Origin: a virus
Taxonomy: Duplodnaviria > Caudoviricetes
Reading direction: 5' to 3' (one strand)
Length of the DNA: 59,999 nucleotides
Virus record (IMG/VR): IMGVR_UViG_3300034158_000041
Coordinates: 1-59,999 of that record
Made by a program: the position numbers and the translations under genes. Positions 9,996 to 59,999 of the stretch are shown one piece after another (within the stretch, counting starts at the first letter, position 1; each line of letters starts with the position of its first letter). The notes under the pieces are model-generated. The model was not told where the DNA came from, did no database searches, and saw nothing but the letters and a program-made list of their open reading frames with translations.

Positions 9996-10652
9996 CTAAA
10001 CTAATAATCCTTTTGAATAAGCATACCATCGTCTAATATCTTGATCTGTCATGACATAGGGCAAAAGTAAAATACTATCAACTGCGCCTGTTAAATACGC
10101 CGAATAATTGGCGCTCGCGTCTTGTCTAACTCCAATCATTGGGTATTGTGTCGCGGTATATGTTAATGTCGCTGTCCATGCAGTAGAACTTTCGAGTTTT
10201 CCATCCAAGTATATTTTTATTGTAGTACCATCAAAGGTTGCCGCGATCATATGCCAAACATCATTAGTAACAGATGTAGATGTTGCCGCCGCTTTGATAT
10301 CACCATCTGCTGTTCCGGTGCCTTTGGCTAAAATTACACGAGCAACACCGGACAAAATGTCTAGAAAGAATCCATAATATACCGAACTTGTCAGATTCCA
10401 ATTTTGGATAATAGTCCCGTCGCCCGTTCCTTTGTACCAAGAAATAATTGTTGGTGTTGCAGGCTTCAGACTCGCATTATTTGGTAATGCTATCCTCGAT
10501 GTTGAACCATTAAAAATTCCAGCATCTCCAAATCTGCCCAATCCATAGGACATATTGGAGTCGGTGCCATTATTCGAGTTTCCCGATATATCATTAGAAT
10601 TACCATCTAGCGGCCAATTGCCCACCGAAATACCCGCATACCTTCCCATCAT
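9996..10652 (-). CDS. LamG/concanavalin A-like lectin domain protein
   Basis: WPLDG..D..GNSNNGT, WHMIAATFDGTTIKIYLDG, LTGAVD. Confidence 0.85.
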   Translation of the reverse strand: MMGRYAGISVGNWPLDGNSNDISGNSNNGTDSNMSYGLGRFGDAGIFNGSTSRIALPNNASLKPATPTIISWYKGTGDGTIIQNWNLTSSVYYGFFLDILSGVARVILAKGTGTADGDIKAAATSTSVTNDVWHMIAATFDGTTIKIYLDGKLESSTAWTATLTYTATQYPMIGVRQDASANYSAYLTGAVDSILLLPYVMTDQDIRRWYAYSKGLLV

Positions 10653-11911
10653 GTTCTATACCTCCAAGAATATGGCATGGAATAGAGGATCACGTAAGCG
10701 TCACTGCCAGGTGTCGTGGCGTGCCCTGAGTCATAATCAAGCGTTACCGCCGATCCAGCAGCTACGACAGTCAGAGCCGTATCCAAGATGCAATCTGATA
10801 TTTGGTCTGCTCCGGTGTTGGCTGTGGCGGCTATTTCTGGTTTGGATGTGAAAATGCTGGTGCCGTCATCATTGACATCCCACACGCCCTTGGTGGTTGC
10901 ACACGCGGTCTTATACCTCACCAGGGCCGAAAATACGAGCCTGTCATCAGGCCACCAGATAGTTTTTCCGATATCAGTAGATGCGGCAGCAGGCAGTTTT
11001 CCAGGGACTATAAAAACATCCATCTCAGCTGGCTGGATGCAATACTTCATAAGCGTAAATCCGGCTACCAGATCGTTTCCAAGGATATCGATGGTGACTG
11101 CGTTGGTCCCATATACAGACTGCTTAATCATCGCGCACTGGAATCCACCGCCAGATTTCTCCCATTTAATTACTGTGCCTTTCGGGAAAGCAGTTGCATA
11201 TTTGTTTGCTTCGCTTGTATCGGTTATGGTGAATTGGCTATCCGAGACTCTGGTAGGTGATCCCGGGAAGGTTCGCCACATGCTCATGACAGTGGCGGCG
11301 GAATTGCCTTCCAGGAAACTGGTGTTTAGGTGTGCCACGACGGTCTCGGATGCGATGACCAGGGGCGCGGTGCCCGTCGCGACATCACTCTCGAACGTCT
11401 GCGCTCTGATCTCATAGCTGCCCGCGTCCCAATCAGCCGAAAGAGCAACCGTGCCTGCTGCCTTGAGAAAGGCGGTATCTGCGAGACCATTGAGAGCATC
11501 CGAATTTGCGGCATGTAGATTCGCGCAAACCGTGGTGCTGGCGCACTTAAATGGAGCCGTCCCGGTCGCCTGATCTGACTCGAATTTCAGGGCCTTGACC
11601 TGATAGCTACCGGCGTCCCAATCAGCGGCAAGTGTAAATGGTGCCGATGGATATGTCTGCCACCAGACAGCAGCGCCCGCGGTCGCGACCTTGCATACCC
11701 ACGCCCGGCCCGCGGTGGTGTTGAGCCATGTAGATCCGGCAGAATACCCGTCGGCGGAGTCATCGCCCACTCCTGGATCTGTGGCCGCGGCGAAGTTGCA
11801 TTTCGCGAGAGCGGCATCTATCGTCTGCATGTTCGTATTGGTGCCATACGGAAAATTGATATCTGCCGATCCATGGATGAGCAGGCCATTTCGGGTTGTT
11901 GTGGTCGTCAT
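10649..11911 (-). CDS. Tail fibre or receptor-binding protein with an internal ~45-aa duplication
   Basis: DPGVGDDSADGYSAGSTWLNT fibre motif; repeat LxADWDAGSY..FESD.ATGTAP. Confidence 0.7.
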   Translation of the reverse strand: MTTTTTRNGLLIHGSADINFPYGTNTNMQTIDAALAKCNFAAATDPGVGDDSADGYSAGSTWLNTTAGRAWVCKVATAGAAVWWQTYPSAPFTLAADWDAGSYQVKALKFESDQATGTAPFKCASTTVCANLHAANSDALNGLADTAFLKAAGTVALSADWDAGSYEIRAQTFESDVATGTAPLVIASETVVAHLNTSFLEGNSAATVMSMWRTFPGSPTRVSDSQFTITDTSEANKYATAFPKGTVIKWEKSGGGFQCAMIKQSVYGTNAVTIDILGNDLVAGFTLMKYCIQPAEMDVFIVPGKLPAAASTDIGKTIWWPDDRLVFSALVRYKTACATTKGVWDVNDDGTSIFTSKPEIAATANTGADQISDCILDTALTVVAAGSAVTLDYDSGHATTPGSDAYVILYSMPYSWRYRT

Positions 11912-11919
11912 AGGGTCAC

Positions 11920-11936
11920 ACCGTAACATTTATATT
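11920..11936 (+). promoter_or_regulatory. Archaeal BRE-TATA ACCGTAACA-TTTATATT (leaderless mRNA)
   Basis: About 23 nt before ATG 11959; near-identical to 50042-50058. Confidence 0.7.
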
Positions 11937-44607: not shown

Positions 44608-44681
44608 AGCCATCTGCATGATTCGAACATGCGACCTGCAGTTTACCGAACTGCCACTCTAACCAACTGAGCTAAGATGGC
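44608..44681 (-). tRNA. tRNA-Thr(GGT), no encoded CCA, U32-C33 loop
   Basis: GCCATCT/AGATGGC acceptor, GCTC/GAGT D stem, GCAGT-TCGGTAA-ACTGC, GCATG-TTCGAAT-CATGC, U73. Confidence 0.88.
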
Positions 44682-45907: not shown

Positions 45908-46405
45908 CTACCTATCGTCTGGAAAATTCAAGCAACTAAATGCTTTGAAAAGTTTCCTAGCCTCCGCATCGTATGCCAATGCCGCATCTATCTCGGTATC
46001 GAAGTATCCTATATGTATCCGAGACCCATTCATTTTTATTCTGGCCCGCCATCTCTTGTCTCGGGCTTCCCAGTCAACCCCTTTATATTTGCTGCTAGTG
46101 ATACGATTCTGTTTCCTGCTGTTCTGGCAATTTTCTCGACACGTCGCGATTCTAAGATTTTCTCTCCGATTATCCAAACCATCGTGGTTTATATGATCTA
46201 TCTGTTCGTCGTCGCGAAGTTTTCTATCCAGCATCCGTTCCATAATCACGCGATGCATCAACACGCCAGCCACACGCGTTGACATCCGCATTGCATATGC
46301 ACGCGTGTTTACGTGACTGCGACACGCGCACCATTTCTCTTCGCTTAGTTCAACGTCTTCCCGACTTATTGTCACCATTTTGCCACCCGCAAGACGAATT
46401 TTCAT
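45908..46405 (-). CDS. HNH endonuclease with an AP2 domain
   Basis: MHR..IDHINHDGLDNRRENLR..EN..N; SKYKGV.W..RWRARI..GYFDTEIDAALAYD. Confidence 0.92.
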   Translation of the reverse strand: MKIRLAGGKMVTISREDVELSEEKWCACRSHVNTRAYAMRMSTRVAGVLMHRVIMERMLDRKLRDDEQIDHINHDGLDNRRENLRIATCRENCQNSRKQNRITSSKYKGVDWEARDKRWRARIKMNGSRIHIGYFDTEIDAALAYDAEARKLFKAFSCLNFPDDR

Positions 46406-48434: not shown

Positions 48435-48652
48435 ATCCATGCATCCATGATTACCTTGTGATATGGCCCCTCTTTCCAGGCATTGACCGCGCCTGCCAAC
48501 CTCTTGCCCTTCTTGGCAATTATGCCATTTGCATGCATCCTCTGAATGCACCCTCTCCCAGGCTTGATGAACTCACATTTCGCGAGCATTTCTCTTGTTA
48601 TGCCATGCTCTTCCATCCAGATTATTTCCCTGGATGGTTGCTTGCCCTTCAT
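48431..48652 (-). CDS. Small winged-helix-like protein
   Basis: Coupled ORF; MHANGII.K. Confidence 0.45.
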   Translation of the reverse strand: MKGKQPSREIIWMEEHGITREMLAKCEFIKPGRGCIQRMHANGIIAKKGKRLAGAVNAWKEGPYHKVIMDAWI

Positions 48653-49509
48653 GCTGTCAGCTCCTTAATCCTTGCCCTGATAACCCCAACTTGCATGGGA
48701 TAACCCGATCGATCCAAGACCTGTTTGATCTCAAAGTCAAAGTCTCCAGCCTCATGCATGTCTAGCATGATTAGGTCGGCTTCTGACAAAGGAGATGAGG
48801 GAATCATAGGTTTCTTAGGAGATTTGGCTTCCTTGGGGCTCTGGTGAGATCCTAGAGGCTTTTCGAGGTATATCTCGGAGCATTCTTTCATGGTATCTCT
48901 AGCAATCTCCAGATTCTTCTTCTTGATGGCTCCCATATAGCCACCCAGCTTCTGGTGACTGATCTCGATGGAATGTTCAGAAGCCAGATGTTCCAAGATA
49001 GCCCGGGGTGTGAACTGATGGCTCATATAGCCTTCTATCAGGCCCCTGACATCTGGTATCGTGATCTTTGAGAAATCCTCCTCACATTGCACCGAACAAA
49101 AGGGCACCAGTCCGCGGGGATGCTCCATATTAAGATCGAAAGACACCCCGCAATAGGCACAGGACTTCATGTGGCTTTGCTGGCTGACAGATCTGCCAAA
49201 AGGCATGTACTTATCTGGATCTTCCTTTGCGTCGAGCCTTGGGGCTTTGGCGGGCTTCTGTGAGTATTCCTTCTCGCACTCGTAATTGCAGAAAAATTCG
49301 CCGTCTTCCATGATCGCGTTGGGTCCGCGTGGATTCTTGCCACAGTTCTCACATGTTATTTTAGGAAACTCTGACACGAAATTCTTGCGCGGTCTGGAGA
49401 AATCACCCTTTTCGGGTTCTCCTGCGAACTGTCCGTGGGGTTGCCAGGCTGCTATCTGGGCATCGATCTCGGCCTGGGTGCCGGAGAATATGACTTGGAT
49501 GGGAATCAT
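48649..49509 (-). CDS. Protein with two TRASH/MYM-like zinc fingers and HTH-like segments
   Basis: CENCG..FCNYEC and CAYCG..FCSVQC. Confidence 0.6.
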   Translation of the reverse strand: MIPIQVIFSGTQAEIDAQIAAWQPHGQFAGEPEKGDFSRPRKNFVSEFPKITCENCGKNPRGPNAIMEDGEFFCNYECEKEYSQKPAKAPRLDAKEDPDKYMPFGRSVSQQSHMKSCAYCGVSFDLNMEHPRGLVPFCSVQCEEDFSKITIPDVRGLIEGYMSHQFTPRAILEHLASEHSIEISHQKLGGYMGAIKKKNLEIARDTMKECSEIYLEKPLGSHQSPKEAKSPKKPMIPSSPLSEADLIMLDMHEAGDFDFEIKQVLDRSGYPMQVGVIRARIKELTA

Positions 49510-49696
49510 GCACTCTCCCCAATCCACAACAGATCAGCAACCTGGAAAGAAATGTCTTTCTCGCCGTCATATTCCGCTACAAGAGTAACGGTCTCGCTCC
49601 CCCATATTCGGGAAGTAAAAGACTCAAACGACTCCGCGCCCAAATTAATTGTTGCATAGATTCGGCTTATGCCGTTCTTAAACTGAAATTCAAGTT

Positions 49697-50062: not shown

Positions 50063-52954
50063 TTATCCTTTTATCCAGCTCGGCACCGCCTCTTGGAATC
50101 CTATGCTCTTCAAATATGCCTCGCTGTCCATCGGTTTCATCTCTCCGCCCATATCTTTGATTCTCATGGAGAGGGTGAAGGGGGTTAGCTTGCCTTTGTT
50201 GAGCAGAATGCTCTGTAATGCTCTATTTGGTACATCATTGTCCTTTTCTGGTGTTTCCTCTTTGGCCTCTTTAGCCTCAAACGATGTTTCATAACGATCT
50301 TCTAGGGTATCGTTGACCTCTTCTATGGGCCGCTTGATATCGATTTTTTCCTCTGTAACGATTACGTCGATCTTTTCAACCAAGTCCTTTCTACTATATG
50401 CTTTATGGCAATTATTTGTACGTTTCAATAAGTCGTTAAAGATCGTTACATTCGTTACAATCGACCCACCGCTATTGCTTATAGTATCGTTACTAATCGT
50501 TTCAAGATCGTTCAAGATAGTTACTAAAGGAGTATTAGAGTACTCAATCGTTTTCTTGCCTATAAAGGCTTTAAATTCCTTTTCATCGAACCTAAGACCT
50601 TTAAATCCTCGCATCTCTGCGCCATCGACCCTAATTGTAACCGATGGTTGACCATTCTTCCCCCCGATATATCTGGAGAACTTTTTGCGACTCATCTTTG
50701 CCCCGACCGCGAACCGAGTGTACTCTTCGAATTTTGAGTATAACAAATCGGCAGAAATCTTATTGAAATCGTTATCTCTGTCGTTTGGTTCAAAGGTCAC
50801 AAATTGATCAATAAAATCCGAAATTGAATGACTCTGTATCTCATAAGCCTCAAAGTCGTTCTCCCTTCGGTGAATTTTGCGGTCTGGTATGATCGCCTTT
50901 GCCCGTTCGATTATCAGGTTAAGAATGCCGCTTAGTTCCGATTCAGTACAAAGCCTTGTCTCTAGGTTCGGGTCTTTTTGCCTTTGCAGAGGGTTCAAAG
51001 GATCTGGATTATCCACGAATTCATAAGGATGGTTTACTCTCGTGAACCTGCGAATAAAGCCATAGCTATTGTCCTCAAAGATCGGCATCGAGTTGCTATC
51101 AAATATCATCTGCAAAAATGCCCGGAACCTGATCCTGTCCTTGTTTTTGACATCAGCACTGAGCCAATCATTGCCCGATATCTTCTTAATAAGCTCGGTC
51201 TTTGCGCGGTCTGGGTTGGTTTCTGTTGATATGCACATCCTGGCCCGTCTCAGGTATCCGAGAGCAAAGTTTGATTTGGTCAACTCCTCTAAGCTTATCG
51301 CTTCTGTGAACTCTTCCCCGAAAAACGTCTGCAAGAGCGTCTCGTAGATCCTTTTTCCATTGCTGCCGTGCCCTGTTAGGAAGAGGAGATACTCGAATTC
51401 TACCAGACAGGCACAAGCTACTATCCAGTCGATGAGGGTAAGCCTGTCGCTGTCGTTTGATAACGATCCCTCTATAAATTCCACAAACACCGGGCAGGTC
51501 GCCGCCTTGTTATAGGTCACTTTGCAAGGCATTGTCATATAATATTCGGGCGAATGATCCGAGAAGGTGCCTGTCTTGAGGTCTACCACACCATTCTTGC
51601 AGCACAAAAGATAAGGATTTTTGTCAAGTTCATTAAATTCTACCAATGTTCTTAAATAAATCTTTTTAAGAGTTTCCACGCCTGCATGAATATTATAACA
51701 GCTCGCGGCCACTCTTTCAAATGTCTGCTCTATAATTGTTTCCCCATCCGGCCTATAGTATCCGTTTTCATATACCCATATCCTTTTATCTGGCGTAGTG
51801 ACGATATGCAAGTATTGGCAAACGGCATCTGCTGCCCGGGATGGATTGAATTTGACTTTATCAAATTGCCCGCCCTCATCATATTCGATGTCGGCAACAT
51901 CTTCAAGCCGGAGTTCTAATGCCAGGGTCTTTGGTCTTTTTGGCTGCTCAAATATCGGTTCGTTTCGAACCTGTCTGGGTTCATACAGTTCCCTCAGATC
52001 GCGCCAGCCTTTGCCTGTGCATCCATTGTGCTGGCAACCCGCGACCACCGCGCCAGATGGGTACTGAATCACCCACGCCGATCTATCAACATGTGATGAG
52101 TCCCACGGGCAGGTATCGAGCACATGGATAGTTCCGCCACCGTGTGCGGTCTTTCGTTTAACCACATCAAGACCGTGAGACGAAAGCCATTGCTCGATAT
52201 CTATCTTATCAGTTTGTTTTTCGTACCTTTCCGCATGTTCCTTTTGCTTGAAGCCCCATCCTAGACCCGCCAGGAGCTCTTCAGGCACGGGCTTAAGTTC
52301 TGCCGGCGCTTCTATGATTGCCGACTTTCTCCAGGGCCTCTCTGGCACGTTCGCGCCCTTGCGCGCCGTGGTGCCGTATGCCTTCCAGATCCGGGCCGCG
52401 TTGTAGTTTTTGCCATCAATCTTGACCTTATCATCGGAGAAGAGAGCATCCAGGGCTTTCAAAGCCAATTCCACTGATTCGGTGGAGGCATCATTGTTTG
52501 GCAGATCTATTGGATATATCAGGTGCGCGCCGTTGCCAGAGTCTGCGTATATGGGGTCCGGCCATCCTAATGTTTGGAGATGTTCGCGAACCTCTAGGGC
52601 CCTCTTCAGAGCCGCTTCATGCTCTTCATCGGTTGATGAGATCTCCGCCGGCCTGGTAGGGTCAAAGTCCACTGGCAGCCAATAGCGCCTCTCTATATCG
52701 GCATCTGATGTAGTTGCCATGCCCTCGCGCGGAGAGCTGAGGGAATCCGGCCGCCTGGCATAAAGGGCCGGGTTAATCTTGTTTAGAATGAAATATATGC
52801 CTTTGTGTTCTCCGGTTTTATCAAGGATATTAATGGTCTCTTCCAGCTTCTTAAAATCCTTATAATACCCGCTCTGGACGACGTTCTTTTGCTTGCCGAG
52901 GGCTCGCATTTCGATAACATGCCCCGGTTTGAAAAAAATACTCAAATCATTCAA
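50063..52954 (-). CDS. Primase-helicase (AEP-like primase, Zn finger, D5_N, SF3 helicase)
   Basis: VDFD and DSGNGAH primase motifs; CPW..H..C.H..C; CKNGVVDLKTG.F..HSP; GHGSNGK; IKKISGND; RRF. Confidence 0.88.
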   Translation of the reverse strand: MNDLSIFFKPGHVIEMRALGKQKNVVQSGYYKDFKKLEETINILDKTGEHKGIYFILNKINPALYARRPDSLSSPREGMATTSDADIERRYWLPVDFDPTRPAEISSTDEEHEAALKRALEVREHLQTLGWPDPIYADSGNGAHLIYPIDLPNNDASTESVELALKALDALFSDDKVKIDGKNYNAARIWKAYGTTARKGANVPERPWRKSAIIEAPAELKPVPEELLAGLGWGFKQKEHAERYEKQTDKIDIEQWLSSHGLDVVKRKTAHGGGTIHVLDTCPWDSSHVDRSAWVIQYPSGAVVAGCQHNGCTGKGWRDLRELYEPRQVRNEPIFEQPKRPKTLALELRLEDVADIEYDEGGQFDKVKFNPSRAADAVCQYLHIVTTPDKRIWVYENGYYRPDGETIIEQTFERVAASCYNIHAGVETLKKIYLRTLVEFNELDKNPYLLCCKNGVVDLKTGTFSDHSPEYYMTMPCKVTYNKAATCPVFVEFIEGSLSNDSDRLTLIDWIVACACLVEFEYLLFLTGHGSNGKRIYETLLQTFFGEEFTEAISLEELTKSNFALGYLRRARMCISTETNPDRAKTELIKKISGNDWLSADVKNKDRIRFRAFLQMIFDSNSMPIFEDNSYGFIRRFTRVNHPYEFVDNPDPLNPLQRQKDPNLETRLCTESELSGILNLIIERAKAIIPDRKIHRRENDFEAYEIQSHSISDFIDQFVTFEPNDRDNDFNKISADLLYSKFEEYTRFAVGAKMSRKKFSRYIGGKNGQPSVTIRVDGAEMRGFKGLRFDEKEFKAFIGKKTIEYSNTPLVTILNDLETISNDTISNSGGSIVTNVTIFNDLLKRTNNCHKAYSRKDLVEKIDVIVTEEKIDIKRPIEEVNDTLEDRYETSFEAKEAKEETPEKDNDVPNRALQSILLNKGKLTPFTLSMRIKDMGGEMKPMDSEAYLKSIGFQEAVPSWIKG
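50280..50553. repeat. Iteron-like ATCGTT(AC) array, putative replication origin within the primase-helicase gene
   Basis: About 12 exact or near copies; spaced 9-11 bp at 50432/42/51 and 50486/96/507/517; mostly inverted on the left of an AT-rich core. Confidence 0.6.
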
Positions 52955-53059: not shown

Positions 53060-53794
53060 TCATCTCATCGCCTCCGGGAATTCTTTCCTTAGACTCGACT
53101 TCTTTCCAGCTAACATAAGTTGCGCCGCCGTGAGACCCGATAATGGCAGAAGGTTGTCCTTGAGAAATACCGGAACGCCCCATATTTCGGCCTCATCTAC
53201 GATGTAGTTGATCCATTGCTTTTCAGGAACGATCTTATTTGTCCGGTTGCCCGTCTCCATGCCAATGATCGCCCATTCGATCCCTTCCAGATAAGGCAGG
53301 ACGGGTCCATGCAAGGGCTCAAAGGATATGAACCGATGCTTATCAACTGCTTTCCTCAGCGCCGCTATTCTCCAAGCATCACCCTGGTGAGTCACAGATA
53401 CGCCAAACCAAAGGTTGTCCGGTATGCCAATATTCATTTCCTGGAGCACTCCCATTCTATCGGGCCGCTTAGTAAGAACTAAGAAATGATGCTCCGGCTT
53501 CTGCCATGCCATCCACACAATAGATTCTATCCAGTCTTTTTTGACTCCAGGAGAGAACCAATCCGACATGCTGTCAAGGAATACCCGCTTTCCCTTTCCG
53601 CCCAAATTCTGTATATCGCGAAGCTTATCGGAATGGAACGCAGGCCCAAAGGGTTCGTCCTCTGGATAGCCGAACCTGCCTTTTAATCTGAAAGCCATCT
53701 TCCGGGCATAACAATATTCACACCCATTCAAGCATCCTGTTATCGGGTTTATGGTGTCGGTGCACCATCCGATTGGGTTGCTCATGCTACCCAC
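53060..53794 (-). CDS. Phage Gp37Gp68 / DUF5131 radical-SAM-like protein
   Basis: IGWCTDTINPITGCLNGCEYCYA; VF..SMSD.F; LTKRP; N.W.GVSV; FISFEPL; PVFLK. Confidence 0.9.
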   Translation of the reverse strand: MGSMSNPIGWCTDTINPITGCLNGCEYCYARKMAFRLKGRFGYPEDEPFGPAFHSDKLRDIQNLGGKGKRVFLDSMSDWFSPGVKKDWIESIVWMAWQKPEHHFLVLTKRPDRMGVLQEMNIGIPDNLWFGVSVTHQGDAWRIAALRKAVDKHRFISFEPLHGPVLPYLEGIEWAIIGMETGNRTNKIVPEKQWINYIVDEAEIWGVPVFLKDNLLPLSGLTAAQLMLAGKKSSLRKEFPEAMR

Positions 53795-54248: not shown

Positions 54249-54560
54249 ATGGGAAAAATTAAAGAACGGCTTCGCGAATTCGCGGCAGAACGTGATTGGA
54301 CTCAATATCACACACCAAGCAACCTGGCCAAATCAATCAGCATCGAAGCCGCCGAGTTGCTTGAGCTATTCCAGTGGCAGGACGCCCCAAAAGAAGACCC
54401 CGCCCCGGAAATGGCCGATGTGTTGATCTATCTCATCAGGTTGGCTGATGTCATGGGAATAGACCTGGTGGCAGCAACATGGGCAAAGATCGCCAGCAAT
54501 GCCGCCAAGTATCCGGTTGAGAAATGTAAAGGGAGGTCAGATAAGTATGACAAGCTATGA
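54249..54560 (+). CDS. MazG-like nucleotide pyrophosphohydrolase
   Basis: ERDW.QYHTP.NLA.SI.IEAAELLELFQW..EMADV..N..KYP. Confidence 0.92.
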   Translation: MGKIKERLREFAAERDWTQYHTPSNLAKSISIEAAELLELFQWQDAPKEDPAPEMADVLIYLIRLADVMGIDLVAATWAKIASNAAKYPVEKCKGRSDKYDKL

Positions 54561-56769
54561 AGAATTCCTGAAATCAAAGCAATTCGCTGCAAAGCCATCC
54601 GGCTTCCATGCCACAGATATCAATCCAAAGCTCTTCCCCTTTCAGCATGATATAGTATCATGGGCATGTCAGAAGGGCAAGGCGGCCATTTTTGCAGGCA
54701 CTGGTCTCGGCAAGACACCAATCCAACTGGAATGGGCCAACCAGGTCTGCAAGCATTCTGGCGGCAATGTCCTGATCCTGGCTCCTCTCGCAGTCGCACA
54801 GCAAACCGTTGAAGAGGGAGCAAAGTTTGGCATCGAGGTCCATCTTTGCAGGAAGCAGGCCGATGTTCTGGAAGGCATCAATATCACCAACTATGAAATG
54901 CTGGATCATTTCGACCCGTTGCAATTCGTAGGAATTGTCCTGGATGAGAGCAGCATCATAAAGAGCTTTGAAGGCACGGTCAGAACTCAAATCATCGATT
55001 CCTTTCGAGACACGCCCTATAAGTTGGCTTGCACAGCAACCCCGGCGCCAAATGACCACATGGAGCTAGGCAATCATGCGGAGTTCATGGGCGTGATGAG
55101 CAGAACCGAGATGTTATCCTGCTATTTTGTGCATGACGGCGGCCAAACCAGCCAGTGGCGGCTCAAGGGACACGCCAAAACGGCATTCTGGCGATGGGTC
55201 GCGACATGGGCGGTAATGCTTCAAATGCCTTCTGATCTCGGATATGAAGACAACGGCTTCAAGTTGCCGCATCTGACCATAGATCAGGTGGTTGTGGATA
55301 AGACTGGCTACATAGTCCGAGAGGCTTTGACCCTCCAGGACCGCAGAGGAGCCCGGAAGAATAGCCTGGTTCCAAGGGTTGCAGAAGCCGCCAGAATCGC
55401 CACATCTTCACCGGGGCCATGGCTGGTCTGGTGTGATCTGAATGTTGAGGCCGATGCTCTGAGAAAGGCCATACCAGGATCAATTGAAATCAGAGGTTCG
55501 GATGATCCTGAGAAGAAAGCGCAAGCTGCCAGAGATTTTGCCAATGGAAAGATAAATATACTAATCAGTAAATCTTCAATATTTGGCTTCGGCCTCAATT
55601 TCCAAATTTGCCATAAGATGATATTCACCGGCATATCGGACAGCTTCGAGCAGTATTATCAGGCGGTTAGAAGGTGCTGGCGATTTGGCCAAGAGGAGCC
55701 TGTCGAAGTCCATGTTATAACCTCCGAAGCGGAGGGAGCAGTAGTTAAAAACATAGAGCGAAAAGAGAAGGAGTTTGAGAAAATGCTGACTGGAATGATT
55801 GCAGAAACGCAAGAACTGACAAAAGAAAACCTGAAATCCACTTTCAGAGAGACAGACGAATATAAGCAGGGCGTTCAATCCGGTGATGGGTGGGAAATGC
55901 GAATGGCCGATAGCTGCGAAGAGATCAAGACCATTGCAGACGGATCTATCCACTTCGAGATATTTTCTCCGCCTTTCTCCAGCCTATACACGTACAGCAA
56001 CAGTGAAAGAGACCTCGGAAACTGCAAAGGAGACGGCGAATTCTTCAAGCATTTCGGATTCATAGCACCCGAATTGTATCGGGTTCTCATGCCTGGTAGG
56101 TTGCTTGCGGTTCACTGCATGGATTTGCCACTTCAGAAAGCCAGAGATGGGATCATCGGCCTAAAAGACTTCTCAGGAGAATTGATAAGGATATTCCAGA
56201 ACGCCGGATTCGTCTACCATACCAGGATAACAATTTATAAAAATCCTGTGACAGAAATGCAACGCACGAAGGCACTCGGACTTCTCCATAAGCAACTGAA
56301 GAAAGACAGCAGCATGTCCCGGGTGGGATTGCCTGATTACATGTTGGTTTTCAGGAAACCGGGAAACAATCCGGAACCTATAACACACACCGCCGAAGAA
56401 TTCCCAGTTGCAAAATTCCAGGAATGGGCTCAGCCTATCTGGATGGATATCAATCAAAGCAACACCCTCCAGAGGAAATCTGCCAGGGACGACAAAGACG
56501 AAAAGCACATCGCGCCTCTCCAATTGGAAGTTATCAAGCGATGCATAGAAATGTGGACCGCCCCCGGCGATCTGATCTTGGACCCGTTCGCAGGTATAGG
56601 CAGCACTGGATATGAAGCCTTGCGAAATAAGAGAAGCTTCATAGGATTTGAATTAAAGGAAAGCTATTATGATCAGGCCTGCAAGAATCTAAAATTGGCC
56701 GAAATATCCCCGGTTGGACCGCCGCAAGTTGATCTATTTCAGTTCGAGAAAACGGAGGAAACGGTATGA
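54547..56769 (+). CDS. SNF2-like helicase fused to a beta-class amino DNA methyltransferase
   Basis: GTGLGKT, LDESS, TATP, QAVRRCWRFGQ; FSPPF (motif IV) before DPFAGIGST (motif I). Confidence 0.9.
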   Translation: MTSYEEFLKSKQFAAKPSGFHATDINPKLFPFQHDIVSWACQKGKAAIFAGTGLGKTPIQLEWANQVCKHSGGNVLILAPLAVAQQTVEEGAKFGIEVHLCRKQADVLEGINITNYEMLDHFDPLQFVGIVLDESSIIKSFEGTVRTQIIDSFRDTPYKLACTATPAPNDHMELGNHAEFMGVMSRTEMLSCYFVHDGGQTSQWRLKGHAKTAFWRWVATWAVMLQMPSDLGYEDNGFKLPHLTIDQVVVDKTGYIVREALTLQDRRGARKNSLVPRVAEAARIATSSPGPWLVWCDLNVEADALRKAIPGSIEIRGSDDPEKKAQAARDFANGKINILISKSSIFGFGLNFQICHKMIFTGISDSFEQYYQAVRRCWRFGQEEPVEVHVITSEAEGAVVKNIERKEKEFEKMLTGMIAETQELTKENLKSTFRETDEYKQGVQSGDGWEMRMADSCEEIKTIADGSIHFEIFSPPFSSLYTYSNSERDLGNCKGDGEFFKHFGFIAPELYRVLMPGRLLAVHCMDLPLQKARDGIIGLKDFSGELIRIFQNAGFVYHTRITIYKNPVTEMQRTKALGLLHKQLKKDSSMSRVGLPDYMLVFRKPGNNPEPITHTAEEFPVAKFQEWAQPIWMDINQSNTLQRKSARDDKDEKHIAPLQLEVIKRCIEMWTAPGDLILDPFAGIGSTGYEALRNKRSFIGFELKESYYDQACKNLKLAEISPVGPPQVDLFQFEKTEETV

Positions 56770-57845
56770 AAATGTTATTGGTTGAGCCAAAGATCCATTC
56801 ACCTTTTCCGCCATATGGGTTGCTGAAGATAGCTACCCATCTACGCAATGAAGGCCACGAAGTTGAGCTTATCAGGCAAGGGTATAAGCATCCCGGATAC
56901 ACGCCGGATAAGATTTACATGACTTCTCTGTTTACATATTCATGGAAGCCGGTATGGGAAGCGGTGAAATTCTATAAGGGTGCGTTCCCCAACACGCCCA
57001 TAGAATTGGGCGGTATATATGCCTCTCTGATGCCAGAGCACGCCCGAAAATCTGGCGTTGATAAGGTTTTCTCCGGGCTGTGGGATGAAGTTGATAATCT
57101 GGTTCCTGCCTATGACCTGGTGCCGGAATGGGATGGAAGCATCATATTTACGCAGCGGGGATGCATTAACAGGTGTGGGTTTTGCGCCGTCCATAGAATC
57201 GAAGGCCAAATGCGATCAACCGGGCCAAGCATCAAACCGTATATCTACCCCGGCCACACCAAGATATATCCATATGACAACAATATTACCAACGGGCCCG
57301 AATGGGATCGAGTTTGGCAGGAGTTGAAAGACTCCAAGCTGAAGATAGATATCAGAAATGGTATAGATTCCAGAACCGTTGATGATAAGATCGCAGGGCA
57401 AATGAACGATCTTCGATTGCTGAGGTTGCAGACATCTTTTGACAGTATCAAGGATTGGGATAAGGTCGAGAATGGCATAAGTCTATTGAAAAAACACATG
57501 ACAAAAAAGTATAATATCGTGGTTCTTATATTATACAACTTCAACGATACACCGGATGAATACTTTGAGAGAATGAAGGTAGTACTTGATTGGGGGTGCT
57601 TATGCTACCCAATGCGATATCAGCCACTGGATACACTAAAAAAGAACTCCTATCTATCGTCGAAGTGGACAGAAAAGGAGCTTTTGGCCGCGCGAGCCTT
57701 CGTCACTAACCACGGCATCATGAGCTTTACCTACAAATGCAAGCGCCTGCCAGAGACGTTTTTTGAAGCAAAAGATTTCAACGAAGGCGTGATGCAGTAC
57801 TACAATAAGAAGGATCAAACAGAATTAACGGTGTGGTGTGGATAA
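56766..57845 (+). CDS. Radical SAM enzyme with an N-terminal B12-binding-like domain
   Basis: LLVEP..PPYGLLKIA..G..V; TSLFTY; LGGIYASL.P; TQRGCINRCGFC; YDNN. Confidence 0.85.
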   Translation: MKMLLVEPKIHSPFPPYGLLKIATHLRNEGHEVELIRQGYKHPGYTPDKIYMTSLFTYSWKPVWEAVKFYKGAFPNTPIELGGIYASLMPEHARKSGVDKVFSGLWDEVDNLVPAYDLVPEWDGSIIFTQRGCINRCGFCAVHRIEGQMRSTGPSIKPYIYPGHTKIYPYDNNITNGPEWDRVWQELKDSKLKIDIRNGIDSRTVDDKIAGQMNDLRLLRLQTSFDSIKDWDKVENGISLLKKHMTKKYNIVVLILYNFNDTPDEYFERMKVVLDWGCLCYPMRYQPLDTLKKNSYLSSKWTEKELLAARAFVTNHGIMSFTYKCKRLPETFFEAKDFNEGVMQYYNKKDQTELTVWCG

Positions 57846-57875
57846 GCTTATATAGTTATAGGTATAGTATCTAGT

Positions 57876-58076
57876 ATGGCACAGATTGAGATATCCAAAG
57901 TTGGGAAGAGATGGGTAGCAAAACTCGGAGAAACTGGAAGCTTCGGCGAAGCTCAGATGTTTGTTCGTGAGCATCCGATAAAAGATGCTAAAATTAGCAT
58001 CCTTCCAGACGACAGCGGGGCATGTGAGATCATGGCCGTTTGGACTAAGAACCCTGGTGAGGTACAATGGCGTTAA
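57876..58076 (+). CDS. Small hypothetical protein (leaderless; TTATATAG box at ~57848-57855)
   Basis: TATA box about 21 nt upstream. Confidence 0.55.
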   Translation: MAQIEISKVGKRWVAKLGETGSFGEAQMFVREHPIKDAKISILPDDSGACEIMAVWTKNPGEVQWR

Positions 58077-58204
58077 TAAAGCGAAATGTGACCATAGAAA
58101 AGCAGCATGATGATTGGTTGAAGCTTCATAAAAAAAGTTTTAATTTTTCCGATCAGGTGCGAACGTGGTTAAGCAATTACATAAAAGCACACGATGGTGA
58201 TTAG
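58067..58204 (+). CDS. Ribbon-helix-helix microprotein (not in track)
   Basis: KRNVTIEKQHDDWL..NFSDQVRTWL; GGTGAGGT SD. Confidence 0.6.
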   Translation: MALIKRNVTIEKQHDDWLKLHKKSFNFSDQVRTWLSNYIKAHDGD

Positions 58205-58205
58205 T

Positions 58206-58457
58206 ATGGAATGCAAAATCTGCGAAAAGGAAAGAGAGATTTCCAAACATTTTAAGCATAGTCCGAGACTTAGAATATGCGATGAATGTGTCGAATTGAT
58301 GGGATACAATCATCAGAGAATTGGAGAGAGAATCTATAATCAGTATAAAAAGAACCTGGACAAATCACTGAAAGAAGAGGTTCAAAGAACCCTGCCTATG
58401 ATTATTGAAAAGCTAATGACAGAATCCGATCTAACATTTGAACTGAAGGTGTGCTAA
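58206..58457 (+). CDS. Zinc-finger protein
   Basis: CKIC...ICDEC. Confidence 0.55.
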   Translation: MECKICEKEREISKHFKHSPRLRICDECVELMGYNHQRIGERIYNQYKKNLDKSLKEEVQRTLPMIIEKLMTESDLTFELKVC

Positions 58458-58458
58458 A

Positions 58459-59184
58459 ATGCAATTCAAAGTCGTAATTTCCCCAACCACAATGAAAGAC
58501 ATAATCAATGCCATCAAAGATGTAGCCGAAGAAGTCAGAATCCAAGTCTCGGAAACCGGCCTGAAAATCCAGGCCGTTGACCCGGCAAATGTCTGCATGG
58601 TATTCTTGGATGCACCCCAGGATGCATTCGAGTACTACAAAACCGATGCCGGAGACCTAGCACTCGATATGATCAGGCTGGACCAATTCACCAACGGATC
58701 TGACAGCATCTCCATGGAATTGGACCCCGAAACCCACAAGATGGCCGTGGACCATGGCCGGTCCAAGTTCTCCATGTCTATGATAGACCCAACTGCAATC
58801 AAGGGCGCCCCAAGAGTCCCCAACCTGGATATGCCATGTAGCATTGTGATATCAGGCGCTGATGTCTATGATGCTATCCAATCGGCTATCAAGGTCTCTG
58901 ATCATGCCATCCTCGAACAGGACGAAGAGAACTTTGTGCTGGAGGCCAAAGGAGACATTGACTCCGTGAGAACTGCTTTCCAGTTGTCGGAACTGACCGG
59001 TATTAGGCAAGGCATGTCTAGGGCCGTGTTCTCACTCGATTACCTGGCGGATATCGCAAAGGTGGCTAGAAAGGTATCGGCGGTCCAGATCGAAACCGGG
59101 ATAGATTATCCCACTGTGATATCCTTCGGGATGGGAAAAATTTCTGTTCGTTATATGCTCGCCCCGCGCATCGAACAGGACTGA
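58459..59184 (+). CDS. pcn: DNA sliding clamp (archaeal PCNA)
   Basis: GLKIQAVDPANVCMV; AFEYY; VFSLDYL; GIDYP; YMLAPRIE. Confidence 0.95.
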   Translation: MQFKVVISPTTMKDIINAIKDVAEEVRIQVSETGLKIQAVDPANVCMVFLDAPQDAFEYYKTDAGDLALDMIRLDQFTNGSDSISMELDPETHKMAVDHGRSKFSMSMIDPTAIKGAPRVPNLDMPCSIVISGADVYDAIQSAIKVSDHAILEQDEENFVLEAKGDIDSVRTAFQLSELTGIRQGMSRAVFSLDYLADIAKVARKVSAVQIETGIDYPTVISFGMGKISVRYMLAPRIEQD

Positions 59185-59924: not shown

Positions 59925-59999
59925 TTCCAACCGGGAACTAGATTCTTAATTGCCCTTCCTGGCTGGATAGCACTCTCCGGCCAATATGGATGATGGCAC
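59925..59999. repeat. Terminal direct repeat copy
   Basis: Identical to 1-75. Confidence 0.95.

Follow-up and report, generated by a model that had tools for sequence, protein, structure and literature searches.

A viral operon joining PCNA with a helicase–methylase and a radical SAM enzyme that carry putative clamp-docking tails

The window analysed here is 59,999 bases long and is the whole of virus record IMGVR_UViG_3300034158_000041, a complete genome of about 60 kb. It encodes on one strand, in this order, a MazG-like protein, a helicase fused to an N4/N6 DNA methylase, a small radical S-adenosylmethionine (SAM) enzyme (hereafter rSAM), a 66-aa open reading frame (ORF), an 87-aa zinc-ribbon ORF and a PCNA sliding clamp (Table 1). 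The MazG-like gene runs into the methylase gene, an ATGA holds both the stop of the latter and the start of rSAM, and 613 nt, with the two small ORFs inside, lie between rSAM and PCNA. The helicase–methylase and rSAM both end in short peptides resembling clamp-binding motifs, and a similar peptide ends the D5-type primase-helicase encoded upstream. We put at about even chances the reading that this is a replication-associated operon, in which the primase-helicase, the methylase and a DNA-modifying rSAM are docked to PCNA and the resulting mark protects the viral genome. The viral PCNA would then be the docking ring for at least three enzymes with C-terminal docking tails, which would ride on the clamp behind the fork by virtue of these tails. 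The helicase–methylase would methylate newly made viral DNA during replication, and rSAM would most likely alkylate a base, or change it in some other way, by means of a 5′-deoxyadenosyl radical and perhaps a corrinoid; the leading guess for this base is cytosine or one that is methylated already.

Clamp-type tails of the operon enzymes

The MazG-like, methylase, rSAM and PCNA ORFs and the tail motifs of the methylase and rSAM had been proposed in an earlier reading of the DNA (the sequence-only reading), and all were recovered on one strand where that reading had placed them. The helicase–methylase counts 756 aa from its first ATG and 740 aa in the database copy. Its residues 489–727 match PF01555 (N6_N4_Mtase) with 89.4 bits against a cut-off of 26.7, the phrog_16 match has an E value of 1.3e-76, and both SPPF (motif IV) and PFAGIGS, an FxGxG SAM-binding motif, are present, while the PADLOC Type II methyltransferase models match the C-terminal half only. 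The SNF2 label given in the sequence-only reading is not supported by the Pfam search of the window protein, which gave no match to PF00176 (SNF2-related ATPase), a label that some homologues carry. Helicase_C was matched above its cut-off (33.3 bits), DEAD and ResIII fell below theirs, and the helicase part can safely be assigned to superfamily 2 (SF2). The PCNA is closest among solved structures to 1rwz (E 1.1e-43, residues 5–240) and retains the columns that are invariant across 54 aligned PCNA sequences, the C-terminal A-P-R-I among them.

A canonical PCNA-interacting protein (PIP) box reads Qxx-psi-xx-theta-theta, and the known archaeal PIP motifs all lie at the very C-terminus, according to the passages on these motifs in PMC6881253. 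The rSAM motif, which forms the last 9 residues of the protein, has Q351, L354 and the aromatic W357 at position 7, and the methylase motif, ending 6 residues short of the C-terminus, has Q743, L746 and F749. The PIP boxes announced by the sequence-only reading are therefore right in the glutamine, in positions 4 and 7 and in the C-terminal site, and wrong in position 8, which is C358 in rSAM and E750 in the methylase; both tails are called PIP-like instead of canonical because this position is not aromatic. In the AlphaFold2 model of rSAM, residues 355–359 have predicted local distance difference test (pLDDT) values below 50, indicating disorder, so that the tail fits a flexible docking tail. 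A predicted complex of PCNA (54-row alignment) with rSAM residues 296–359 (9-row alignment) scored 0.00 twice, with the controls unfolded and the partner fold uncertain, and speaks neither for nor against docking.

The section of PMC9690074 on clamp-binding motifs gives the beta-clamp motif as a C-terminal QL(S/D)LF and the PIP box as Qxx[I/L]xxFF. The methylase peptide QVDLFQF satisfies both QxxLF, of beta-clamp type, and QxxLxxF, of PIP type. Compared with QL(S/D)LF it reads Q-V-D-L-F, with V at position 2, and the virus's own clamp is PCNA, not beta. Across 100 non-overlapping ORFs of the window, Qxx[LIVM]xx[FYW] occurs four times in the last 20 residues (shuffled tails: mean 1.18, P(>=4) = 0.028), namely in the primase-helicase, the helicase–methylase, rSAM and one doubtful 56-aa ORF. 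That the three credible carriers are neighbours in the PCNA replication module was noticed post hoc but is striking.

The helicase–methylase family is very large, with all 7999 of 7999 scored database candidates significant and 308 phage records matched in one collection. Among the best 120 homologues, 58–100% identical to the window protein, nearly all have a motif 10–20 residues past the last methylase helix, in forms such as a terminal QxxLF, KPxQxxLFxFE or PKQVGFDYF. Within their last 30 residues, 72 of these 120 contain Qxx[LIVM]xx[FYWL] (shuffle mean 5.6, maximum 13) and 50 contain Qxx[LM]F (mean 1.0, maximum 6), a pattern found once in the bodies of the 120 proteins. Helicase–methylases from 80 viral-contig loci were added, of which 64 with a complete ORF and the anchor helix were kept and 16 dropped. 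This gave 184 anchored tails, and QxxLF and/or Qxxhxx[FYW] is present in 128 of them (QxxLF only, 31; both, 43; Qxxhxx[FYW] only, 54), a further 14 have xxLF without the Q, and 42 have none, several of these being near variants such as QGELV and QTSLL. Many phage copies terminate in QxxLF. On these alignments the conservation expected by the sequence-only reading is found on the methylase side, and it is supported that the tail is a conserved short linear motif of apparently clamp-binding type.

A shared methylase tail, PPQASLFTF..., was seen in P0133–P0158, from metagenome-assembled genomes (MAGs) labelled Omnitrophica and Synergistaceae, and in vir525 (L254), a related 60-kb record whose helicase–methylase is 66% identical to that of the window and whose deposited host is Methanosarcinales. 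Given this identity of tails the MAG host labels are considered unreliable, and the sequences so labelled are probably viral contigs binned with the wrong organism.

For rSAM, the eight nearest of the best 120 homologues are 47–51% identical to the window protein and form with it a nine-member nearest clade. Here the Q is invariant and QxxL/I is present in 9/9, followed by 1–7 residues, with varying flanks (QTELTVWCG, QLSLEDI, QRQLV, QATLGSW, QKTLLDL, QRSLSDL, QKTLLDLWGNL, QSDLRVFFSEA and QKDIYAYTTS), and one member has a fully canonical PIP, QSDLRVFF. The tail conservation proposed in the sequence-only reading accordingly extends over the nearest clade. The remaining 111 of the 120 homologues end differently, DWR...K[QR]W being conserved in many of them. 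A broader sample of the 150 best representatives at 50% clustering was compared with 300 shuffles, and Qxx[LIVM]xx[FYW] was present in the last 25 residues of 10 of them (mean 2.14, maximum 7) and Qxx[LIVM] in the last 12 residues of 29 (mean 13.6, maximum 23); motifs at the very end include ...QTQLPDF, ...QKDLGIF, ...QRVLNQY and ...QIEMF.

Sliding clamps beside the radical SAM genes

Gene order was compared at 80 viral rSAM loci and 90 metagenome or genome rSAM loci, with the neighbours clustered. A DnaN-type beta clamp of about 340 aa lies within 5 kb of rSAM at 16 of the 80 viral loci and directly downstream at 12, with spacings from a 13-nt overlap to a 254-nt gap; after merging of copies at least 95% identical, the figures are 15/72 and 11/72 groups. 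The 340-aa neighbour corresponds to phrog_947, "processivity factor" (E 6.5e-20), and its profile matches the beta clamp 4tr6 over nearly the full length (E 8e-19), the phage beta clamps being mutually only 17–25% identical. The same viral loci contain DnaB-like helicase (18), PolIII alpha (16) and clamp loader (6) genes. In a tree of 159 rSAM sequences, built without twelve ORFs of fewer than 250 or more than 480 aa, the clamp-adjacent enzymes fall into at least three separate deep clades, with 6 Fitch changes for 19 clamp-linked tips. One locus, L027, has the order DnaB, rSAM, helicase, methylase, MazG, beta clamp and PolIII alpha, and is a bacterial version of the window gene set; MazG relatives occur in the equivalent module of L027, L043 and L062.

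PCNA was found at none of the 80 viral loci and at none of the 88 other loci outside the window's rSAM clade, to which two of the 90 metagenome or genome loci (L092 and L093) belong. L092 has, in order, a nucleoside-deoxyribosyltransferase (NDT)-like gene, rSAM, a helicase–methylase 79% identical to that of the window, a zinc-ribbon ORF and a PCNA (53%). Its CxxC...CxxC ORF directly before PCNA resembles the window zinc-ribbon, as judged by eye and unscored, and a separate helicase at this locus terminates in QEASPSWVRG, comparable to QEAVPSWIKG of the window primase-helicase. Taken together, the gene orders support a tie of the rSAM family to sliding clamps of both kinds. The sequence-only reading had known of no clamp-coupled radical SAM enzyme modifying DNA, and the literature search likewise found no clamp-linked radical SAM enzyme; nor did it find a clamp-binding phage or prokaryotic methylase. 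A search of phage records with the beta clamp returned only distant clamps, of 9g-like and other phages.

A separate pattern was noticed in the phage enzymes. A GFG[LFIV] patch is present in the C-terminal 60 residues of rSAM at 7 of the 16 clamp loci (L009, L023, L024, L025, L043, L045 and L059) and at 1 of the 64 others, the background being 0.006 per tail and the pattern having been defined only once the data had been seen. Small neighbour proteins and one methylase C-terminus contain patches of a similar kind. To judge from these sequences, the patch may be a docking motif for the divergent phage beta clamps.

Several observations weigh against clamp docking. Besides the non-aromatic position 8 of both tails, the flanks of the methylase motif are acidic, and in the human PCNA study PMC6881253, in its part on flanking charge, motifs with negatively charged flanks are regarded as likely non-binding. 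A clamp gene was found within 10 kb at 0 of the 80 helicase–methylase loci, so that these enzymes would have to rely on the clamp of the host. Most members of the rSAM family are without clamp-type tails, which are also absent from all five rSAMs of named phage or virus records (4 isolated phages and 1 metagenome-assembled), and the loose motif is not significantly enriched over the 120 nearest rSAMs (9; shuffle mean 3.5, maximum 10) because the other 111 tails differ. The clade with PIP-type tails has been seen in context at three loci only, and one of these, L093, has the NDT-like, rSAM and helicase–methylase genes and no PCNA in the 5.7 kb of sequence available downstream. A search from a single phage beta clamp matched only its own two contigs, and clamp adjacency could reflect nothing more than a shared replication module. 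The helicase–methylase and rSAM, treated by the sequence-only reading as partners, did not prove to be a regular pair: rSAM lies within 10 kb at 1 of the 80 helicase–methylase loci, a full-length helicase–methylase is near rSAM at only a few of the 170 rSAM loci, and vir525 has the methylase without rSAM.

Some of these points would also be explained if rSAM modifies DNA untethered and after replication, its tail being a clade-specific accident or a motif for another partner, a reading that we regard as unlikely though deserving of attention. The scarcity of clamp-type tails in the family is what it would predict, as is the other conserved tail of the archaeal-island rSAMs described below (DWR...K[QR]W), and the gene fusions and neighbours indicate DNA and are silent on the clamp. 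Three results speak against it, namely the retention of QxxL/I throughout the nearest clade despite varying flanks, the family-wide enrichment of the motif over shuffled tails among the 150 representatives, and the overlapping or near-abutting rSAM and beta-clamp genes in at least three deep clades.

DNA as the likely substrate and the possible chemistry

The rSAM family comprises 5230 cluster representatives at E<=1e-3 in a profile search of 1.84 billion representatives, and its long members point to DNA. Six of the 20 long members scanned with Pfam carry a C5-cytosine DNA methylase (PF00145), on either side of the rSAM part: it is N-terminal in P0412 (E 5e-57), P0510 (E 6e-53) and P0485, and the C-terminal part of a C5 methylase is C-terminal in P0431, P0445 and P0478. 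In a single pairwise comparison, the extension of P0401 showed weak similarity to a ParB-like protein encoded beside an rSAM gene (E 0.002). DNA methylase genes are near rSAM at 18/80 viral and 9/90 other loci, and at L010 a C5 methylase gene abuts rSAM. At L043 and L062, ParB-like proteins, a protein of the phosphoadenosine phosphosulfate (PAPS) reductase/DUF3440 type (DndC/IbrA kind) and MazG are encoded between rSAM and the clamp. In isolated Bacteroides phages rSAM stands among PAPS reductase, Dam-type methylase and nucleoside triphosphate pyrophosphatase genes, and Dulem virus 39 has MazG, C5 methylase, "reductase" and rSAM in a row. More distant relatives occur in the isolated phages Bacteroides LoVEphage and BKO1-TP3, Clostridium phiCT453B and Marinitoga camini virus 1. 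The action on DNA suggested in the sequence-only reading is thus likely, on the grounds of the C5 methylase fusions and the DndB-like and ParB-like neighbours. Two family members, P0393 and P0396, contain inteins (Intein_splicing and LAGLIDADG), and about ten others match the family in two stretches, the first of which in several cases ends near CxxxCxxC.

It has also to be considered whether rSAM acts on free nucleotides or nucleosides and, together with MazG and NDT-like proteins, makes a non-standard precursor for the polymerase. In its favour, the module repeatedly includes MazG-like genes, the beginning of rSAM is overlapped by a DUF1937/DUF4406 (NDT-like) gene at L092 (4277–4606) and L093 (156–593), where the window has MazG in the corresponding position, and vir525 has an NDT gene after its helicase–methylase. 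We nevertheless find this quite unlikely, as the fusions are to C5 methylases, which act on DNA, the DndB-like and ParB-like partners bind DNA, and a clamp-type tail would be useless to a pool enzyme.

The window rSAM clade is nested (support 0.98) in a clade of Bathyarchaeia, Thermoplasmata, Methanospirillum and other MAGs, whose neighbouring genes encode DndB/DpdB-like DGQHR proteins (18 loci), GHKL ATPases (17), NurA (14), two groups of HerA-like ATPases (13 and 9) and SF1 helicases (10). DndB-like, GHKL, NurA or HerA genes are present at 56 of the 90 metagenome or genome loci (49/78 groups), and the DGQHR protein matches PF14072 (E 3.3e-13) and PADLOC DpdB (E 1.1e-15). These islands, with helicases and nucleases beside the DndB/DpdB-like protein, are similar to the Dnd (phosphorothioate) and Dpd (7-deazaguanine) systems and correspond to the arrangement usual for these, in which restriction genes accompany a modification enzyme and a ParB-like partner. 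They differ in having no DndA/C/D/E or DpdA, rSAM standing instead in the place of the modifying enzyme. The archaeal layout is that of a modification–restriction island with rSAM as the modifier by position; no PADLOC model matches rSAM itself.

By this comparison the rSAM mark would be a "self" label in the archaeal islands, and a viral genome bearing it would be shielded from restriction of that kind. A wider proposal, which we hold only tentatively and with less confidence than the operon reading, is that phrog_9298 and its archaeal relatives form a new class of DNA-modifying rSAM that alkylates a base by radical chemistry, for instance through lengthening or remodelling a methylated cytosine. 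The mark would be the self label of archaeal cells in an as yet undescribed system, similar to restriction–modification and made up of DndB-like, GHKL and HerA–NurA proteins, and viruses of both domains would have acquired the enzyme and tied it to their PCNA or beta clamp, every new genome copy being marked at the fork. A subfamily of about 383 aa from archaeal cells (L082–L171) has the conserved extreme C-terminal tail DWR..V....L[SA]K[QRK]W, which may dock the enzyme to a different partner within the DndB-like/GHKL/HerA–NurA islands.

Marinitoga camini virus 1, an isolated temperate virus of a thermophilic bacterium, has an rSAM 39% identical to that of the window (L172, KP836355.1 37383–41209) beside an annotated HerA and a "Rad50/Mre11-associated single-stranded exonuclease", which we read as a putative NurA; since this virus carries the island, the island type also travels on viruses. 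Its gene order, and the position of the window clade inside the archaeal island clade, would suit an rSAM that is a virus-borne defence or superinfection-exclusion gene, acting as effector or sensor of a HerA–NurA-like system rather than protecting viral DNA. For the window enzyme this is very unlikely, because no DndB-like, GHKL, HerA or NurA gene is beside it and it is translationally coupled to the methylase in a replication operon beside PCNA.

As to the enzyme itself, C133, C137 and C140 (CxxxCxxC) are invariant in an 83-sequence alignment, and the AlphaFold2 model (pLDDT 93, predicted template modelling score 0.90) has a beta-alpha-beta domain at residues 1–110. Many homologues carry a precomputed PF02310 (B12-binding) label, and in a protein atlas rSAM falls only to unnamed "B12-binding radical SAM" clusters. 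Comparison with solved structures gave a sole sequence match, to TsrM 6wte (E 0.041) over the 39 residues 3–41, and the profile of the 83 sequences gave at best E 0.21. An auxiliary Fe–S cluster as in MiaB/RimO was rejected, no cysteine of the N-terminal domain being conserved and the MiaB/RimO matches being limited to the cluster motif. TsrM and other class B radical SAM methyltransferases resemble the window rSAM, in which a putative Rossmann-like domain at the N-terminus precedes the CxxxCxxC core, and differ from it in size (575 aa for TsrM, 359 aa for the window rSAM). No class B radical SAM enzyme is known to have DNA as substrate, and a 2026 review touches on DNA in general terms only.

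The proposed chemistry has its own difficulties. In the window protein PF02310 reaches 27.5 bits, below the cut-off of 32.1, and many phage homologues match only from residue 128 on, with a short N-terminal region, so that from the B12-type enzyme of the sequence-only reading the radical SAM core stands and the B12 part is a candidate feature; the short phage forms may lack the B12-binding-like domain. The C5-methylase fusions suggest, as one idea, methylation of the methyl group of 5-methylcytosine. Hidden Markov model searches of the window found no family B DNA polymerase, C5 methylase or PAPS reductase, and since the virus is without a C5 methylase such a reaction would be inapplicable here unless the host supplies the enzyme.

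Methyl-coenzyme M reductase (MCR) is a protein target of other B12-type radical SAM enzymes in methanogens, which methylate it, and rSAM might by analogy modify a protein, for example the clamp or another replisome component. Translational coupling with clamp genes would agree with this, as would a weak match to an MCR glutamine C-methyltransferase model (E 0.0011), confined to the cluster motif. That match, however, spans only about 20 residues around CxxxCxxC, no clamp gene is near the archaeal cell homologues at any of 88 loci outside the PIP-type clade, and the fusions are to DNA methylases, which together make a protein substrate highly improbable.

The preferred reading, clamp-docked modification of DNA, has precedents for each of its halves. 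Dnmt1 binds PCNA and acts preferentially on PCNA-loaded, newly replicated DNA, as stated in the portion of PMC9690074 dealing with it. As a DNA methyltransferase with a clamp-binding motif it appears to have a prokaryotic and viral counterpart in the helicase–methylase tail, although Dnmt1, a C5 maintenance methylase, carries its motif within a long stretch of disordered sequence, whereas the window enzyme is a beta-class N4/N6 methylase fused to an SF2 helicase, with a putative motif near the C-terminus. Radical SAM enzymes working on DNA are represented by spore photoproduct lyase (SPL) and by gp53 of phage M6, an isomerase which functions in thymidine hypermodification and is termed, in the part of PMC8989533 describing it, the first radical SAM enzyme to install a DNA modification. 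By that account (PMC8989533) gp53 is SPL-like and has no B12-like domain, and it acts on bases derived from 5-hydroxymethyldeoxyuridine in a kinase/transferase pathway, which is absent from the window. No clamp link is reported for gp53 in that account.

Although PCNA, a PF01555 methylase and MazG are ordinary parts of an operon, the clamp-type tail on a widespread phage helicase–methylase, this rSAM family and its clamp coupling are new to the literature searched, in which the family was not found described (supplementary gene tables of virus surveys were not covered). If the tails function as proposed, a very common phage helicase–methylase would be recruited by the sliding clamp, and prokaryotic viruses would have replication-coupled methylation akin to that of Dnmt1 and PCNA, which would explain how phage DNA is protected from the moment of synthesis. 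A large unnamed rSAM family would gain a DNA substrate and a testable role, and the methylase fusions, the clamp synteny in two domains and the archaeal defence islands would together lead to an unknown DNA modification with a modification-dependent defence system. Should the clamp-coupled, base-alkylating reading be correct, rSAM would be the first radical SAM enzyme coupled to a clamp, and its mark a DNA modification new to nature's known set.

The virus, its host and the neighbouring genes

The window has an exact 75-nt terminal repeat (1–75 = 59925–59999), giving a unique genome length of 59,924 nt, and its genes for a large terminase and for a major head protein of HK97 type (phrog_10, E 1e-39) identify a head–tail virus. 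Its PCNA is closest to a clade of metagenomic PCNAs with 48–88% identity, which are probably viral, and the nearest named cellular PCNAs are those of Methanothrix/Methanotrichaceae, at 42–44% identity. These nearest cellular PCNAs and the deposited host of vir525 make the methanogen host guessed in the sequence-only reading reasonable and likely, and by these sequence affinities the host is probably Methanothrix or another member of Methanosarcinales.

Table 1. Features of the replication region and adjoining part of the window
Feature	Position	Strand	Evidence and remarks
tRNA-Thr(GGT)	44608-44681	-	sole tRNA of the window; between packaging and replication modules
HNH endonuclease genes	45908-46405 and 48649-49527	-	phrog_99 E 2e-39, plus one weaker; between packaging and replication modules
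D5-type primase-helicase, 963 aa	50063..52954	-	PF08706 D5_N E 1.1e-18, DUF5906; phrog_864 and phrog_1829 DNA primase E ~1e-50
Primase-helicase C-terminal PIP-like tail, QEAVPSWIKG (last ten residues)	50066..50095	-	translation, motif scan
DUF5131 protein with its own CxxxCxxC	53060..53794	-	PF07505 E 2.5e-44; divergently upstream of the operon
MazG-like nucleoside triphosphate pyrophosphatase, 103 aa	54249..54560	+	PF12643 47.1 bits (cut-off 27); phrog_3301; first operon gene
SF2 helicase fused to beta-class N4/N6 DNA methyltransferase	54499..56769	+	PF01555, Helicase_C, phrog_16
Methylase tail motif QVDLFQFE	56725..56748	+	residues 743-750
Small radical SAM enzyme (rSAM), 359 aa	56766..57845	+	phrog_9298 E 1.9e-52; N-terminal B12-binding-like domain
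rSAM tail motif QTELTVWCG, extreme C-terminus	57816..57842	+	residues 351-359
66-aa ORF	57876..58076	+	no match in Pfam, NCBIfam or PHROGs
87-aa zinc-ribbon protein, directly upstream of PCNA	58194..58457	+	weak zf-C4_ClpX match, E 0.004
Viral PCNA sliding clamp, 241 aa	58459..59184	+	NF002222 224.6 bits (cut-off 207); PCNA_N and PCNA_C

The DUF5131 protein gives a partial match to TIGR04471, "radical SAM mobile pair protein A", with 128.6 bits at a cut-off of 355, and its relatives were seen near rSAM at 7 of the 80 viral loci and near the helicase–methylase at 2 of 80. In another part of the genome, an 85-nt direct repeat with 72% identity (11364–11448 and 11553–11637, at a spacing of 189 nt) lies within a 426-aa ORF on the minus strand (10649–11929), where it probably reflects a repeated protein domain of a tail or fibre-like gene.

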